Source: Mycobacteriales bacterium (GTDB lineage Bacteria; Actinomycetota; Actinomycetes; JAFAQI01). From it: a DNA stretch of 64,000 nucleotides. The notes below the pieces were generated by a model. It was not told where the DNA came from. It saw nothing but the letters and a program-made list of their open reading frames with translations, and ran no database searches. Shown here piece by piece: positions 3,448 through 16,847 of the stretch (its first letter is position 1; each line of letters begins with the position of its first letter). The translations under genes and the position numbers were made by a program. Location: assembly GCA_035504215.1 (NCBI GenBank), contig DATJSI010000050.1, positions 8,340 through 72,339 on the forward strand, in the 5' to 3' direction.

Positions 3448-4347
3448 TCAGGCTCCTTCCGTGGCATCGGAGGTGGCCTCGGTGCCGGCCTCGGCAACCG
3501 GCTCCGCAGCCGGCTCGCCGGCAGCGACCGGCGCGGCCTCGACGGCCGGCTCAGGCGCCGCGGCGGGCGCGGGCTCAGCCACCGGGGCGGGCTCGGCAAC
3601 GGCGGCGGCGCGGCCGCCGTTCACGGCGGCACTGGCCGCGGTCGACGGGCGGTCCCGCCGCGGACGGCGGTTGCGCTGGTCACGAGCCCGCAGCGCGGCG
3701 GCAGCGGCCGCCTCCTCGCGGGTCATGACGTCGTCGCCGGTATAGATCCAGACCTTCACACCGATCCGGCCGAAGGTCGTGCGCGCCTCGTAGAAACCGA
3801 AGTCGATGTTGGCGCGCAGCGTGTGCAGCGGAACCCGGCCTTCGCGGTAGAACTCGGAGCGGCTCATCTCCGCGCCACCGAGTCGGCCACCGCACTGGAC
3901 CCGGATGCCCTTCGCGCCACCCTTCATCGCCGACTGCATCGCCTTGCGCATGGCACGGCGGAAGCTGACCCGGCTCGACAGCTGCTCGGCGACCCCCTGC
4001 GCCACGAGCTGGGCGTCGATCTCGGGGTTCTTGACCTCGAGGATGTTGAGGTTGACATGCTTGTTGGTGAGCTTCTCCAGGTCGCCCCGGATCCGGTCGG
4101 CCTCCGCGCCACGACGGCCGATGACGATGCCCGGCCGCGCGGTGTGGATGTCGACGTTGACCCGGTCGCGGGTGCGCTCGATCTCGACCCGGCTGATCCC
4201 GGCACGTTCCATGCCCTTGGTCAGCAGGCGCCGGATCGCGACGTCTTCTTTGACGTAGTCCCGGTACAGCTTGTCGGCGTACCAGCGGCTCTTGTGCCGG
4301 CTGGTGATGCCGAGCCGGAACCCGTTCGGGTTGACCTTCTGACCCAT
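3448..4347 (-). CDS. rpsC: 30S ribosomal protein S3 with ~80-aa Ala/Pro/Glu-rich C-terminal extension
   Basis: 299 aa [26 protein letters not shown].... KH and S3-C domains are followed by the low-complexity tail [26 protein letters not shown]. Confidence 0.92.
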
Positions 4348-9892: not shown

Positions 9893-12001
<2,109 letters not shown>

Positions 12002-12046: not shown

Positions 12047-12517
12047 TTACCAGCGGTAGTGCGCGAAGGCCTTGTTGGACTCCGCCATCTTGTGGGTGTC
12101 CTCGCGGCGCTTGACCGCGGCACCGAGGCCGTTGCTGGCGTCGAGCAGCTCGTTGGTCAGCCGCTCGGTCATCGTCTTCTCGCGGCGCTGCCGGGAGTAC
12201 ATGACCAGCCAGCGCAGCGCGAGGGTCGTCGCCCGGCCGGGCTTGACCTCGACCGGCACCTGGTAGGTCGCGCCGCCGACCCGGCGGCTCTTGACCTCGA
12301 GTGCCGGCCGGACGTTGTCGAGCGCGCGCTTGAGCGTGACGACCGGGTCGGTCCCGGTCTTGTCGCGACAGCCCTCCAGCGCGTCGTAGACGATGCGCTG
12401 GGCGAGCGAGCGCTTCCCGCCGGTCAGGATCTTGTTGACCAGCGAGGTGACGATCGGCGAGCCGTAGACCGGGTCGGCGATGACCGGGTGCTTGGCAGCG
12501 GGGCCCTTACGCGGCAT
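12047..12517 (-). CDS. rpsG: 30S ribosomal protein S7
   Basis: 156 aa [48 protein letters not shown]... Confidence 0.95.
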
Positions 12518-12520
12518 CGC

Positions 12521-12892
<372 letters not shown>

Positions 12893-13196
12893 TCGCCGTT
12901 CTCCTCGTGCGTGCGGATGGTGCGGTTCGTATGTTTTTGCGCCGATATCCCCGACCCACGCGGTCGGGTGTGTCGCACGCTCCGCGCTCCGCCCGCGCCG
13001 ACCGGCGCGAGAATCTGCTCGGAGGGTCCCGACACCCGGCCCCGCACGTTCAGATGCCCGGCGCAATGAACTCCGGGCGCCGTCACCGTGCTGGTCACGA
13101 GCGTGTCGGGTTGCACGACACAGCGTCCGGATCGCTCCAGACACCGCGTGCCACACTAGCCGAGCGCGAACCGCCGGGTCAAAACCTGCCCGTTGG

Positions 13197-13223
13197 GGGT
13201 AGTGGGTCAGTTTGAGCGGGACG
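13197..13223. repeat. left terminal inverted repeat (IR-L) of the insertion
   Basis: GGGTAGTGGGTCAGTTTGAGCGGGACG; its exact reverse complement occurs at 16348-16374. Confidence 0.8.
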
Positions 13224-13262
13224 TTTCTGGCGATGCTTGACCGCTCACGCTAGCCTTGAAGC

Positions 13263-13415
13263 ATGGCCAAGACAGCAGTAGCGGCCGGCGACCCCGGTGA
13301 CTGGTTCGCGCTCATCCTGATCCTAATCTCGCTCGGCATCCTGCCTGGCAAGTGGAAGGGCACCGTATCGGGCGCGGCGACTCTGTACTGGATTTGGAAG
13401 AGGTTCGGCGAGTGA
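13263..13415 (+). CDS. 50-aa hydrophobic peptide with one predicted transmembrane helix (below ORF-track size cutoff)
   Basis: Hand translation MAKTAVAAGDPGDWFALILILISLGILPGKWKGTVSGAATLYWIWKRFGE. The TGA stop overlaps the GTG start of the next ORF (GAGTGA). Located just inside IR-L. Confidence 0.4.
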   Translation: MAKTAVAAGDPGDWFALILILISLGILPGKWKGTVSGAATLYWIWKRFGE

Positions 13416-13645
13416 CGCCGAAGCGTCCCCGTGACCTGAACCAGCTCGCGGCCAGGCTAGTCGAACTAGCCACCGATCCGGACGCCGAGGACACGCCCGA
13501 CACCGGCAAGGACCCAGCTGCGGTTAAGCTCGGACGACGGGGAGGGCTCAAAGGCGGCCGGGCCCGCGCCGACAAGCTCACCGCGGAGCAGCGCAGCGAG
13601 ATCGCCAGGAAGGCCTCCGCCGCTCGGTGGAAACGCGACCGCTAG
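13412..13645 (+). CDS. small basic protein (~77 aa) with C-terminal K/R-rich motif GGLKGGRARADKLTAEQRSEIARKASAARW; putative nucleic-acid-binding
   Basis: The in-frame ORF track starts at 13352. GTG at 13412 is preferred because a GGAAGAGG RBS lies 8 nt upstream and it is coupled to the preceding peptide stop. The C-terminal motif recurs in many small bacterial proteins (recalled from memory). Confidence 0.55.
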   Translation: MTPKRPRDLNQLAARLVELATDPDAEDTPDTGKDPAAVKLGRRGGLKGGRARADKLTAEQRSEIARKASAARWKRDR

Positions 13646-13694
13646 CGCTGGTAGCATCCCACCGATGTAATTCAATCCGGATGGGGGTGCCCGC

Positions 13695-14471
13695 GTGGCC
13701 AGGACCTCATCCGATGACGCGATTGACCTGCCCCTCCGCTATCCGACCTCTCTGATCCACGTTGACGAGAGCGGGTCACGCGCGAGCAGGGAGCAGTTCT
13801 TCGTTGTGGGCGCCGTCAAGGTCCGCGAGTCTGGCCAACTGGCTCGGACCATTCGTGACGTGCGCGACCGCAACAACTTCGAGGGCGAGTTCAGGTTCAG
13901 CACGATCTCGCGAGGGAAGCTGGCCGTCTACTACGACCTGATCGACCAGCTTGAGCAGTCGGACGCCCACTTCGCGGCGTGTGTGGTCGACCGAAGCACT
14001 GGGGCAGATCCCTTCGCGTCCTCCGTGCCGCCATGGCGGATTCACGCTCGGGTAACAGCGCAGCTCCTGCGAGCGTGCATCAATCGACGCGAGGTCGTAT
14101 CGGTGTTGCTCGATAGCATCTCGACCCCAAAGGGTTGCGCGCTTGACGACACAGTGCGCGGGATGGTCAACACCCAACTGGGACGCACTGCCGTCGTGAC
14201 GGCTGCGTGCCTCAACTCCAGGACCAATGATGGCTTGCAGGTGGCCGACCTCGTCGCGAGCGCCATCGCATTCGACCGCCGCAAGGGGTGCCTTACGAAG
14301 GACAAACACCCCAATTCACACAAAGCTAAGGTGGCAGCGCGCCTTGCCACCGCGTTCGGCATTAGCTCGTTCGATGACGTGCACACCGAACGGGTGAACA
14401 TCGCCACCTACCGCCGGCGAGCGCCTGTGCGGCTCGCCACAGTCGAAAAGATTCCGCGCCTGACTGGTTGA
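13695..14471 (+). CDS. DUF3800-family protein
   Basis: 258 aa. N-terminal LIHVDESG and C-terminal GLQVADLVASAI match the conserved DESG...QxADL signature of DUF3800 (recalled from memory). GTG start. A GGGGG purine tract lies upstream. Confidence 0.6.
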   Translation: MARTSSDDAIDLPLRYPTSLIHVDESGSRASREQFFVVGAVKVRESGQLARTIRDVRDRNNFEGEFRFSTISRGKLAVYYDLIDQLEQSDAHFAACVVDRSTGADPFASSVPPWRIHARVTAQLLRACINRREVVSVLLDSISTPKGCALDDTVRGMVNTQLGRTAVVTAACLNSRTNDGLQVADLVASAIAFDRRKGCLTKDKHPNSHKAKVAARLATAFGISSFDDVHTERVNIATYRRRAPVRLATVEKIPRLTG

Positions 14472-14717
14472 GATTTCTCCGATTCGGGCGATACTCTGTA
14501 TGTGCGGCTTGAGCTTCGGGCTCACATCTGCACGTTCGGGCTTGAGCTTCGGGCTCACGGCCCGGAGAACTAGGGCTTGTAACGGCCTCCCACAGACAAC
14601 AACGACGAAGCGTCTCGTCAGAACTGGCGGGGCGCTTCGTCGCGTCTGCGCGCCCCCACGCAACTGCGAACGCCAGGAGGTTGACTTTCCCTAAGCGGTC
14701 AAGCATAATGGTCAGTA

Positions 14718-15583
14718 TGAACAAGCTGAGTCCGGAGAAGCGAGCGCAGGTCATCGGCTGCCTGGTCGAAGGCATGAGCATCCGAGGCACCGTCCGGACC
14801 ACAGGAGTAGCCAAGAACACCATCGTCAAGCTGCTTGTCGACCTCGGCGACGTCTGCTCCTACGCGGCGAACGAACTGCTAGTCGACGTCGAAGCCAAGC
14901 GCGTCCAGTGCGACGAGATCTGGTCCTTTTGCTACTCCAAGCAGAAGAACGTCCCCGAGGACAAGATCGGTGAGTTCGGGTACGGCGACATCTGGACGTG
15001 GACCGCTATCGACGCCGACACGAAGCTCGTCATCAGCTACCTAGTCGGGGACCGTTCCAGCTACTCGGCGCATCGGCTCATGGAGGACGTGTCCTACCGG
15101 GTCACGGGCCGGATGCAGCTCACCACCGACGGGCACAACGCCTACCTGAACGCGGTCGAGGACACGTTCCACGGCGACATCGACTACGCGCAGCTCGTGA
15201 AGATCTACGACGCTCCCAGCGGCCAGGACAACGAGCGTCGCTATTCGCCGGCTGTCTGCACCGGAGCCGACAAGCGCCGGATCAACGGGCACCCGGACGA
15301 GAAGCACATCAGCACCAGCTACGTGGAGCGCCAGAACCTCACTATGCGGATGAGCATGCGCCGGTTCACCCGGCTCACGAACGCGTTCAGCAAGAAGGTG
15401 GAGAACCTCGCCGCCGCCGTGAGCCTGCACTTCGTGTATTACAACTTCGCTCGGCCGCACCAGACGCTCACGAAGGCGAACGGCGGACGCCCGACCACCC
15501 CGGCAATGGCGGCAGGAAAGGCGTCCCGAGTTTGGACACTTGCCGACATCGTGCGCCTTCTGGACTACCAACTGCCGGAGTGA
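14718..15583 (+). CDS. IS1-family (ISMhu11-like group) transposase, single ORF
   Basis: N-terminal HTH (MNKLSPEKRAQVIGCLVEGMSIRGTVRTTGVAKNTI). DDE region (QCDEIWSF, WTAIDADTKL, LTTDGHNAY). C-terminal ERQNLTMRMSMRRFTRLTNAFSKKVENLAAAVSLHFVYYNFARPHQTL, typical of actinobacterial IS1-family transposases. The ORF track starts at 14681. A TTGACT-17-CATAAT promoter suggests a leaderless start at the ATG near 14718. Confidence 0.7.
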
Positions 15584-15699
15584 CCGGCGAGCCTCCACCA
15601 TCCGAACGTGTGTTCGTCGTAACTTCCCAGGCATTGGAGCCCCGGCGCGGCTGCAACCGCCCGGGGCATGGACCCCATCTTGTAAGGAGATGAGGACGT

Positions 15700-15975
15700 A
15701 TGAGTAAAAGGATCGTCGCCGTCCGCAAGAGTCGGTACGGCCACGGCCACCTCACCGAGGCCGGTATCGGCACGGTTCACGGTCGCCCCGCCTACTGGGA
15801 AGGCGTCGACACGGTGCGAGCGAACCTGGCCTCGCAGACCTACTACACGGTGAGTCCGACGTCGGGAGCGGTGGCCTACGTCCATCGGGTCACCTGCGAG
15901 TGCGGCGTGAAGACCATCCAGACCGACGGCGACCGGTGGCGCGACAACAACCTGGACAACCTGCCCACCTACTGA
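15700..15975 (+). CDS. DUF3892-family small protein
   Basis: 91 aa MSKRIVAVRKSRYGHGHLTE...YYTVSP..AYVHRV...TDGDRWRDNNLDNLP, matching DUF3892 hallmarks (recalled). Strong SD AAGGAG 8 nt upstream. AT-rich leader. Confidence 0.55.
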   Translation: MSKRIVAVRKSRYGHGHLTEAGIGTVHGRPAYWEGVDTVRANLASQTYYTVSPTSGAVAYVHRVTCECGVKTIQTDGDRWRDNNLDNLPTY

Positions 15976-16298
15976 TCAAGGTCCGGCACGATGGACAACG
16001 ACTGGAGTCGTGGCATTTCCGGTCGCGGCTTCAGTTCGTCCTCAGCGCGGTCGGGGAAGGCTGCGTATCCCATCGCGACCGCGATGCAGTCCGCGATGAA
16101 CGGCACCACGTGCTCAGCGGTTCCGACGGGCAGCTCGATTGCGATCCTGTCGTCCAGCGCCAGATAGATCTGTCCCCCCGGTTGCGGCGTCGCCGACAGG
16201 TAGGGGACGCGCCGCCCGCGCAGCACGACCGCGTGCGCCCGGAACGGGCCGATGAACTCCAGGTCGCTAAGCGCCGGGAGGTCAGAGTCGACGCTCAT
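15969..16298 (-). CDS. hypothetical protein (109 aa), convergent with and overlapping the DUF3892 gene by 7 nt
   Basis: ORF MSVDSDLPALSDLEFIGPFRAHAVVLRGRR.... An AT-rich promoter-like region (TCATTAT, ATGTAATTC motif) lies immediately upstream, inside IR-R. No recognisable family. Confidence 0.4.
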   Translation of the reverse strand: MSVDSDLPALSDLEFIGPFRAHAVVLRGRRVPYLSATPQPGGQIYLALDDRIAIELPVGTAEHVVPFIADCIAVAMGYAAFPDRAEDELKPRPEMPRLQSLSIVPDLDQ

Positions 16299-16347
16299 CG
16301 GCGCGATAATGACATCAATGTAATTCGATCCTTGGGTCCGACGCGCC

Positions 16348-16374
16348 CGTCCCGCTCAAACTGACCCACTACCC
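16348..16374. repeat. right terminal inverted repeat (IR-R) of the insertion
   Basis: CGTCCCGCTCAAACTGACCCACTACCC, the reverse complement of 13197-13223. The first mismatch is at the outermost flanking base. Confidence 0.8.
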
Positions 16375-16514
16375 GAACCCGCGGCCGGGCCTTGACCGCG
16401 GCGTACGCCGAGCTCGAGCGGCCCGCCGGGCCAGTGGGCGGCAGGTCCCCTAGCCGAGCGCGGCCAGGCCGCCGCTTGAGCCGGTGGTGGTGTGGGCAAC
16501 GACCAGCGTGACGA

Positions 16515-16847
16515 TCACGACCAGCCACACACCACGAGCTCGACCGACCCGAGGGTGATGCCGGCCAGCGCGAGGCCCCGGCCGCGGTCGCCGTTGTGCC
16601 GGATCTGGCGGACCGCGATGATGCCGAACACCAGCCCGAGGACGCCGCCGAGGAACGGCAGGATGCTCAGGGCCACCGCACAGCTGGCGGCGCCGATCGC
16701 GAACCCGTTCATGCTCGGCCGCGCCGGATACCCGTACGGCGGGTAGCCGTAGCCGACCGGGCCGCTGGTGGCCGCCGCATAGACCGGCGGCCGCTGCCAA
16801 CCGGGCGGGGCTGCGTAGGGAGGTTGCGGACCGGGCTCCGGGGTCAC
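16515..16847 (-). CDS. DUF4190-family membrane protein (Pro/Tyr-rich N-terminus, two TM helices)
   Basis: 110 aa with PPYAAPPGWQRPPVYAA...GYGYPPYGYP followed by AIGAASCAVALSILPFLGGVLGLVFGIIAVRQIRHNGDRGRGLALAGITLG. Confidence 0.65.
   Translation of the reverse strand: MTPEPGPQPPYAAPPGWQRPPVYAAATSGPVGYGYPPYGYPARPSMNGFAIGAASCAVALSILPFLGGVLGLVFGIIAVRQIRHNGDRGRGLALAGITLGSVELVVCGWS

Follow-up and report, generated by a model that had tools for sequence, protein, structure and literature searches.

A predicted DUF3800-small RNA module carried as cargo by an IS1-family element of a Mycobacteriales bacterium

We analysed a 64,000-nucleotide stretch of DNA from a Mycobacteriales bacterium (NCBI GenBank assembly GCA_035504215.1, contig DATJSI010000050.1, positions 8,340 to 72,339 of the forward strand), referred to throughout as the window. 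It contains a 3.18-kb insertion sequence (IS) of the IS1 family (13198-16373), inserted between rpsL and rpoC in a high-G+C actinobacterial chromosomal setting where the flanking genes all lie on the minus strand. From left to right the element carries genes for a hydrophobic peptide of 50 aa (pep50), a small basic protein (sm77), a DUF3800 protein, an IS1-type transposase and a DUF3892 protein and, on the minus strand, a 109-aa open reading frame (ORF; Table 1). A first-pass annotation had singled out the first three genes, placed them as mobile-element cargo just inside the left inverted repeat (IR-L), and proposed that together they have the architecture of a toxin-antitoxin (TA), abortive-infection or phage-defence cassette. 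Its description of the genes was confirmed. The TGA of the 50-aa ORF overlaps the GTG of the 77-aa basic protein at 13412-13415, the 258-aa protein begins at GTG 13695, 49 nt past the sm77 stop, and matches Pfam DUF3800, and both the placement and the cargo status are borne out by the perfect 27-bp inverted repeats (IRs) of the element. In two public assemblies of the same organism, gene callers gave exactly the 50-, 77- and 258-aa genes, and the G+C content at the third codon position (0.82 for pep50, 0.81 for sm77 and 0.77 for DUF3800) exceeds the 0.5-0.7 found at positions 1 and 2 of the three ORFs, as is usual for coding DNA of this genome. The three genes lie in the left arm of a cargo-carrying IS1-family element, and this arm holds three independent modules.

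The first-pass annotation missed a conserved small-RNA gene that lies between DUF3800 and the transposase (14501 to ~14650). In the conserved unit 3' of DUF3800, a TAnnnT box is followed by two tandem hairpins, then by a short spacer that sometimes holds an extra hairpin, and finally by a strong G+C-rich terminator hairpin, which in other loci often carries a T-run. The two tandem hairpins are built alike: an outer stem of 7 bp is separated by a 2x3 internal loop from an inner stem of 5 bp, which is capped by a triloop. RNAalifold, applied to 16 sequences, independently returned the structure that had been drawn by hand. A covariance model of this core (R1) matches the window only once in 64 kb, at the position given in Table 1 (78.5 bits, E 2.7e-13). 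The occurrence of the RNA was assessed in a set of 104 DUF3800 loci totalling 512 kb (22 genomes, 80 metagenome contigs and 2 viral contigs). R1 matches 74 of the 86 loci with enough downstream sequence, and 74 of the 76 in which DUF3800 is at least 40% identical; the two loci above this identity that lack a match are DUF3800 gene fragments. The RNA lies 30-80 nt downstream of DUF3800, and the median gap between the protein match and the motif is 76 nt. R1 also matches the sister element that carries DUF3800 (L115), and no match was found in IS relatives that have other cargo and no DUF3800. At three loci DUF3800 is followed by only one hairpin of this type rather than a pair: L016 (4575-4700) and L020 (5730-5840), where DUF3800 is only 33-35% identical, and L006 (5775-5920), where it is 55% identical.

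Across 62 distinct sequences, 95.5% of cells pair and compensatory changes are seen in 20 of the 24 pairs, compared with 25-39% pairing in controls in which the 3' partner was slid. This alignment was fitted to R1, and a seed alignment made without R1 agrees with it. The window RNA (14501-14652) folds at minimum free energy (MFE) into the consensus plus the long terminal hairpin, with z = -5.5. G-U pairs are frequent and are compatible with the sense strand only. In other loci the TAnnnT box lies 5-10 nt 5' of hairpin 1; in the window, the promoter-like site (Table 1) puts the predicted start at the foot of that hairpin. In L076, L077 and L114 the RNA and its -10 box occur together on the opposite strand, convergent with DUF3800, and this inversion of the whole unit indicates a separate transcription unit. 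Collectively, these features point to an independent sense-strand small RNA with a predicted length of ~150 nt. Within a locus the 18-nt cores of the two hairpins share 96% identity, and between loci 81%; the outer stems, at 48%, retain just their pairing. Such concerted evolution of the two cores suggests a single sequence-specific binding partner that is used twice, which would most simply be a DUF3800 dimer.

The DUF3800 protein matches Pfam PF12686 with 35.1 bits (gathering cut-off 21; E 2.7e-8), and a protein search returned ~160 close homologues, all of ~256 aa. An N-terminal DE and a C-terminal QxxD motif have been described for DUF3800 (PMC7736814). In an alignment of 28 sequences D24, E25, D140, Q182 and D185 are invariant, with D24-E25 forming the DE motif and Q182-x-x-D185 the QxxD motif. 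The predicted structure (pLDDT 89) has RNase HII, H2A and H3 as its best structural matches. Because the acidic residues and Q182 are invariant, the protein is likely to be an active nuclease. Component A of the PADLOC candidate system PDC-M04 (model PDC-M04A) is matched over nearly its full length (E 1.8e-16, model positions 7-209 of 232). No second PDC-M04 component was found, and the other five proteins of the element have no PADLOC match at E up to 1. DUF3800 also appears to have its own promoter, as a -10 box and a leader motif (CAC..TGTAATTC) begin just 3' of the sm77 stop, and the same pair precedes DUF3800 genes outside IS elements. Together, DUF3800 and the small RNA form a self-contained two-part module spanning ~13650-14650.

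Neither of the small proteins recurs with DUF3800. A tblastn search of the 104 loci with all element proteins found no homologue of pep50, sm77, the transposase or any other protein of the element. All-against-all ORF clustering of the 22 genome loci identified no conserved protein neighbour of DUF3800, yielding only DUF3800 opposite-strand shadow ORFs and one syntenic genome pair. Adjacency of sm77 and DUF3800 recurs only in L115/L116, a sister element from this IS lineage. Judged by conservation of neighbourhood, the true partner of DUF3800 is the small RNA and neither small protein.

The sm77 gene belongs with the transposase. Its GTG start (13412-13414) overlaps the pep50 stop as GTGA, and the protein ends in ...GGLKGGRARADKLTAEQRSEIARKASAARWKRDR. 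More than 1,100 homologues of 76-90 aa were found, and similarity begins at the N-terminus of the GTG model (TPKRPRDLN); the family consensus reads KRPRDLNxLA ... GKDPAAVxLGRRGGLKGGxARAxKLTxEQRSEIAxKAAxARW. All six homologues that were looked up lie within IR-bounded IS1-family elements whose transposases are 53-65% identical to that of the window, and five of the six are 50-70 nt from IR-L. The cargo of the sister elements differs: Fic in L025, 275- and 253-aa proteins without assigned family in L026, a dCTP-deaminase-like protein with a helix-turn-helix (HTH)-peptidase M78 protein in L031, HTH-M78 with NYN in L117, AAA_16 in L119, and DUF3800, as in the window, in L115. The transposase of L117 (2576-3464; 79% nucleotide identity) is disrupted and split into 91- and 183-aa ORFs, while both IRs, the small gene (sm80) and the HTH-M78 and NYN cargo are retained; this is probably a non-autonomous copy. 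On viral contigs, an IS1-type transposase match was found in 14 of the 80 loci fetched with sm77, 12 of them full-length, at 0.4-2.7 kb from the sm gene. The protein has no Pfam, NCBIfam or PADLOC match, a profile search of the PDB returned nothing meaningful, and PHROGs gave weak matches only, to the C-terminal motif. This 35-aa motif (GGxKGGxARAxxLTxEQRSEIAxKAAxARW) is also present inside phage proteins of 328-353 aa (phrog_2384-like) on viral contigs L164-L201, indicating a mobile module that is not confined to the IS protein. Taken together, sm77 appears to be a hallmark companion gene of the IS lineage, whatever the cargo, and may act as a DNA-binding regulator or cofactor of transposition.

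The first-pass annotation had allowed that pep50 could be a chance ORF. This is not so: in addition to its GC3 of 0.82 and the public gene calls, it has two relatives, both full-length (51 aa) with ~45% identity, which emerged when 1.84 billion representative proteins were searched exhaustively with HMMER. They share MA(K/R)..., W-L/F-x-L, (I/V)(L/I)P(G/R)K(W/Y)KG and, close to the C-terminus, a W. Both relatives are free-standing with Shine-Dalgarno sequences, and no IS end, sm77, transposase or DUF3800 was found near either. A word-indexed search returned only the query, a scan of viral contigs returned no homologue, and Pfam, NCBIfam and PADLOC gave no match. When the left ends of six elements are aligned, the ATG of pep50 coincides in position with the start codon of the sm gene and is followed by ~140 nt that are absent from the sisters, which places pep50 as lodged at the 5' end of sm77. 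L115, which likewise carries DUF3800, has no pep50, and L119 has a different in-frame insertion at the spot that pep50 occupies in the window element. As a result, sm77 would now be translated by stop-start coupling (GTGA) from the captured peptide gene. We therefore regard pep50 as a real but rare peptide gene, and an unrelated passenger.

Table 1. Positions of features in and around the IS1-family element of the window.
Feature	Position	Strand	Description and basis
fusA	9893-12001	-	
rpsG	12047-12517	-	
rpsL	12521-12895	-	
IR-L	13197-13223		Perfect 27-bp inverted repeat with 16348-16374; family-conserved end begins GGTAGTGGGTCAGTTTGA at 13198
pep50	13263-13415 (ATG 13263, TGA 13413-13415)	+	Gene for 50-aa hydrophobic peptide; ORF and public gene callers
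sm77	13412-13645	+	Small basic protein, 77 aa; InsA-like position beside IR-L
DUF3800 promoter-like -10 box and 5' leader	13652-13657; region 13652-13694	+	Box TAGCAT; leader CACCGATGTAATTC
DUF3800	13695-14471 (GTG start)	+	258 aa; predicted RNase HII-like nuclease fold; DE ... D ... QxxD motifs intact
Small RNA promoter-like site	14468-14495	+	TTGAGA, 16 nt, GATACT; consensus scan, 2 sites against 0.2 expected
Small RNA core	14501-14569 (hairpins 14502-14533 and 14535-14566)	+	Two tandem hairpins; covariance model R1
Terminator-like long hairpin ending the small RNA	14603-14642	+	Inverted repeat; 18-bp stem in MFE fold; no clear T-run here
IS1-family DDE transposase	14708-15583	+	291 aa as called; open frame from 14681; gene call
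DUF3892 protein	15700-15975	+	91 aa; Pfam DUF3892, E 9e-6; gene call; right-arm cargo
109-aa ORF	15969-16298	-	Gene call; right-arm cargo
IR-R	16348-16374		Partner of IR-L
rpoC, rpoB	from 16957	-	

The terminal sequence GGTAGTGGGTCAGTTTGA also bounds the sister elements L025, L026, L031, L115, L117 and L119. The transposase matches Pfam DDE_Tnp_IS1 (E 8e-8, 33.1 bits; cut-off 24.1) and NCBIfam IS1 (E 9.5e-19; 68 bits, under the 100-bit equivalog cut-off), and its plasmid homologues, 53-58% identical, carry the annotation 'IS1 family transposase'. With the IS1 family the element shares a DDE transposase of IS1 type, IRs starting GGnnnTG, 8-bp duplications (in sister copies), passengers within the IRs and a small basic gene upstream of the transposase, like insA in IS1. 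It differs in that the transposase is encoded by one ORF and has an N-terminal HTH of its own, that no similarity of sm77 to InsA, or to any model in Pfam or NCBIfam, could be detected, that the cargo is defence- or TA-like and exchanged between copies, and that the window copy has no target duplication. The single-ORF and ISMhu11-type groups of ISfinder are what we take to be the closest IS1 relatives with passenger genes.

Several further observations concern the ends and surroundings of the element. In the right arm, the DUF3892 gene and the 109-aa ORF overlap tail-to-tail by 7 nt; among all sister elements and DUF3800 loci examined, neither product has a homologue. Just inside IR-R and pointing outward, 16313-16331 nearly repeats, over 19 nt (84%), the leader motif of DUF3800 at 13660-13678 (CAyCrATGTAATTCrATCC), with GATAAT ahead of it. 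The resemblance may be due to chance, or the site may be left over from a second module or have a regulatory function in common with the leader. The element is also flanked by an exact 13-nt repeat, CTAGCCGAGCGCG, at 13156-13168, 41 nt before IR-L, and at 16450-16462, 76 nt after IR-R. Between the element and rpoC, the minus strand of 16450-16800 holds a small, probably membrane-associated gene, in a region of several overlapping high-GC ORFs. Comparison with window positions 13101-13255 revealed that L025 (Fic; 3850-3965) and L119 (AAA_16; 48-207) occupy the same rpsL-upstream region in other genomes, with the insertion point in L025 seemingly shifted by ~25 nt relative to the window element. 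Insertions upstream of rpsL could reflect a regional hot spot, or an exchange of cargo at an old insertion.

We consider it probable, though by no means secure, that within this IS1-family element with its three independent modules the DUF3800 nuclease is restrained by its partner RNA in a manner resembling type III TA systems. The mechanism that we infer, comprising the stoichiometry of binding, an inhibitory polarity and a role in defence, would run as follows. Each hairpin core would dock one DUF3800 subunit, and the RNA would keep the nuclease inactive in a ribonucleoprotein, in the way of a type III antitoxin RNA. Were the RNA lost or displaced, the nuclease would be free to cut nucleic acid, with a transcription shut-off by phage as a possible trigger. 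The outcome would be abortive-infection defence and/or an addiction that stabilises the host element.

The pattern of decay bears on the proposed polarity. DUF3800 is frameshifted, truncated or internally deleted next to a high-scoring RNA in 15 of 59 assessable loci, while an intact DUF3800 gene lacking the RNA was found in none of 44. In the loci with a broken gene (L014, L015, L017, L018, L054/55, L072-74, L079, L084, L086, L089, L094, L096) the RNA scores 65-87 bits.

A number of points weigh against restraint of the nuclease by its RNA in an element of this kind. The asymmetry of broken genes and intact RNAs fits neutral decay and needs no explanation beyond target size: with a gene ~11 times the length of the RNA core, zero RNA losses in ~12 independent events would be expected neutrally about 1 time in 3. 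Given this 11-fold difference in mutational target, the decay asymmetry was downgraded as evidence of toxin polarity. A distant DUF3800 gene of Legionella was scored as essential in transposon sequencing (10.1101/2020.10.01.323287), a result more in keeping with an antitoxin-like protein than with a toxin. In the known type III systems the toxin fold differs and the RNA lies 5' of the toxin gene, unlike the arrangement here, and the PDC systems are unpublished and experimentally unvalidated candidates (PMC11811056). With regard to the element itself, the role given to sm77 is drawn from position and co-occurrence, and there is no target-site duplication around the window copy, which has CCGTTGGG on the left (13190-13197) and CGAACCCG on the right (16374-16381), as opposed to the perfect 8-bp duplications of the sisters L025, L026 and L031. 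The history of the window copy is thus more complicated than a simple insertion, and suggests that it was later rearranged or recombined with another copy. Finally, most of the same data are fitted by a model in which the RNA is an obligate cofactor.

According to this cofactor model, which we hold to be rather unlikely, DUF3800 together with its RNA is an active RNA-scaffolded or RNA-guided effector of RNase H fold, loosely like Argonaute/PIWI or TnpB-omega RNA, and defence or some other function needs both. The constant presence of the RNA where the gene is intact agrees with it. The IS605-orfB and HEARO motifs of the 2017 survey of structured RNAs turned out later to be guide RNAs, a precedent for such a role. 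DUF3800 is, furthermore, found beside RNA-guided systems and retrons (PMC10910872, PMC7736814, PMC13594972). However, no hypervariable, guide-like segment is present: hairpin 2 is separated from the terminator by a short spacer that close relatives conserve (L007, L009, L018). For that reason the guide-RNA reading was set aside as the lead model. The 258-aa protein, as modelled, likewise appears to have no obvious extra domain for handling guide or target, and survival of the RNA after destruction of the protein gene is unexpected for a pure cofactor.

A role of the hairpins in cis, either as an element of the DUF3800 mRNA (a 3'-UTR stabiliser or tandem terminator) or as a site at the level of DNA (for recombination, or REP-like), is improbable. 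It would account for their location on the same strand, 30-80 nt past the stop codon, in 71 of 74 loci and for the terminator-like hairpin that comes next, but not for the conserved -10 box 5-10 nt ahead of hairpin 1, with its predicted start at the hairpin base, nor for the three loci in which the unit and its -10 box are inverted relative to the gene. The frequent G-U wobble favours a sense RNA over duplex DNA or the opposite strand, the sequence of the cores is conserved beyond pairing and matched between the two hairpins, and the motif is kept after decay of the gene. Since the RNA has its own promoter and flips orientation, a 3'-UTR or terminator-only role was set aside.

It is very improbable that pep50, sm77 and DUF3800 make up one operon for TA, abortive infection or defence, in which a membrane peptide would be the effector and a small nucleic-acid-binding protein and a hydrolase would work with it: single-strand placement, tight spacing, the pep50-sm77 stop-start coupling, the renewed adjacency of sm77 and DUF3800 in L115/L116 and the PADLOC candidate match speak for it, but no pep50 or sm77 homologue occurs at any of the 104 DUF3800 loci, sm77 is paired with the transposase alongside at least five other cargo types, pep50 is missing from L115 and solitary in its relatives, neither small protein matches PADLOC, and the conserved promoter and leader of DUF3800 itself start just past sm77. 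The first-pass annotation had itself tied a cassette to recurrence of the genes elsewhere, and with essentially no co-occurrence (0/104) the proposal of a three-gene unit is largely refuted. What stands of the defence-type architecture is that DUF3800 is a gene of defence-candidate type (PDC-M04A); the three genes are not one functional cassette. The profile searches that the annotation had suggested placed DUF3800 in Pfam and PADLOC and left pep50 and sm77 with no match in Pfam, NCBIfam or PADLOC.

The restrained-nuclease reading can be set beside three known systems. The first is type III TA (ToxIN, CptIN, TenpIN), which shares a protein nuclease with a tandem-repeat small RNA, carriage on mobile elements, separate control of RNA expression, a terminator and a likely role in abortive infection or addiction. 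The DUF3800 fold is RNase HII-like and not that of the ToxN/Kid-like endoribonucleases, there are only two repeats here, each a stable hairpin, and the RNA lies downstream with its own promoter, whereas type III RNA lies upstream with a terminator between it and the toxin gene. No Pfam or PADLOC match to ToxN/AbiQ was found among the element proteins, and membership of the type III family is excluded by fold and gene order.

The second comparison is with structured RNAs already known beside DUF3800, whose genes associate with many different ones (PMC5737381). The motifs DUF3800-I to -XI, drum and skipping-rope (Weinberg et al. 2017, PMC5737381) share with the present RNA a covarying structure beside DUF3800, in either orientation, followed by a terminator; the RNA described here differs in having two tandem copies of one hairpin type and in occurring in Actinomycetota. 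Rfam 15 includes at least DUF3800-I (RF02969) and DUF3800-IX (RF02968) (PMC11701678). Scans of the window (E up to 10) and of nine related loci (E up to 1) found no matching Rfam 15 family, giving chance-level matches only (ybhL, Guanidine-III, and tpke11 on a terminator hairpin). The RNA could conceivably be the same as one of motifs II-XI that may lie outside Rfam. As the comparison was made through Rfam 15 only, we place the two-hairpin RNA in the class of DUF3800-associated RNAs in a broad sense, as a member lacking an Rfam 15 match, and do not call it a new class.

The third comparison concerns type VII retrons (Mestre et al. 2020, PMC7736814), in which a DUF3800 RNase H2-like protein likewise stands alongside a structured non-coding RNA in a defence context, and in which DUF3800 is an effector-like component (PMC7736814). 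The retron-linked proteins lack the QxxD motif, in contrast to the protein of the window (Q182/D185). No reverse transcriptase was found among the element proteins (Pfam) or near the 104 loci (neighbour clustering or tblastn), which excludes identity as a retron. DUF3800 has also been described as a CRISPR accessory protein (PMC10910872, PMC12669027).

For mobile-element biology, the sister copies define an IS1-family lineage with a conserved small basic gene and shuttling defence- or TA-like cargo, which bears on the spread of such cargo in Actinomycetota. For DUF3800, the reason why its genes adjoin so many structured RNAs has been unexplained since 2017, and the protein is without known biochemical function despite its recurrence in retrons, CRISPR-Cas12/13 loci and lists of defence candidates. 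We put forward only tentatively that DUF3800 and its adjacent structured RNAs may represent an unrecognised protein-RNA class of TA or abortive-infection systems, in which the toxin would have an RNase H fold and the antitoxin would be an RNA of repeated hairpins. The compact pair of ~1 kb, with more than 70 natural variants and strong covariation, makes the question directly testable. If true, the proposal would account for the evolution of at least a dozen unrelated RNA structures beside DUF3800 genes and for the recruitment of DUF3800 as an effector by retrons and CRISPR loci, and the actinobacterial two-hairpin RNA would provide a new, experimentally tractable founding example.

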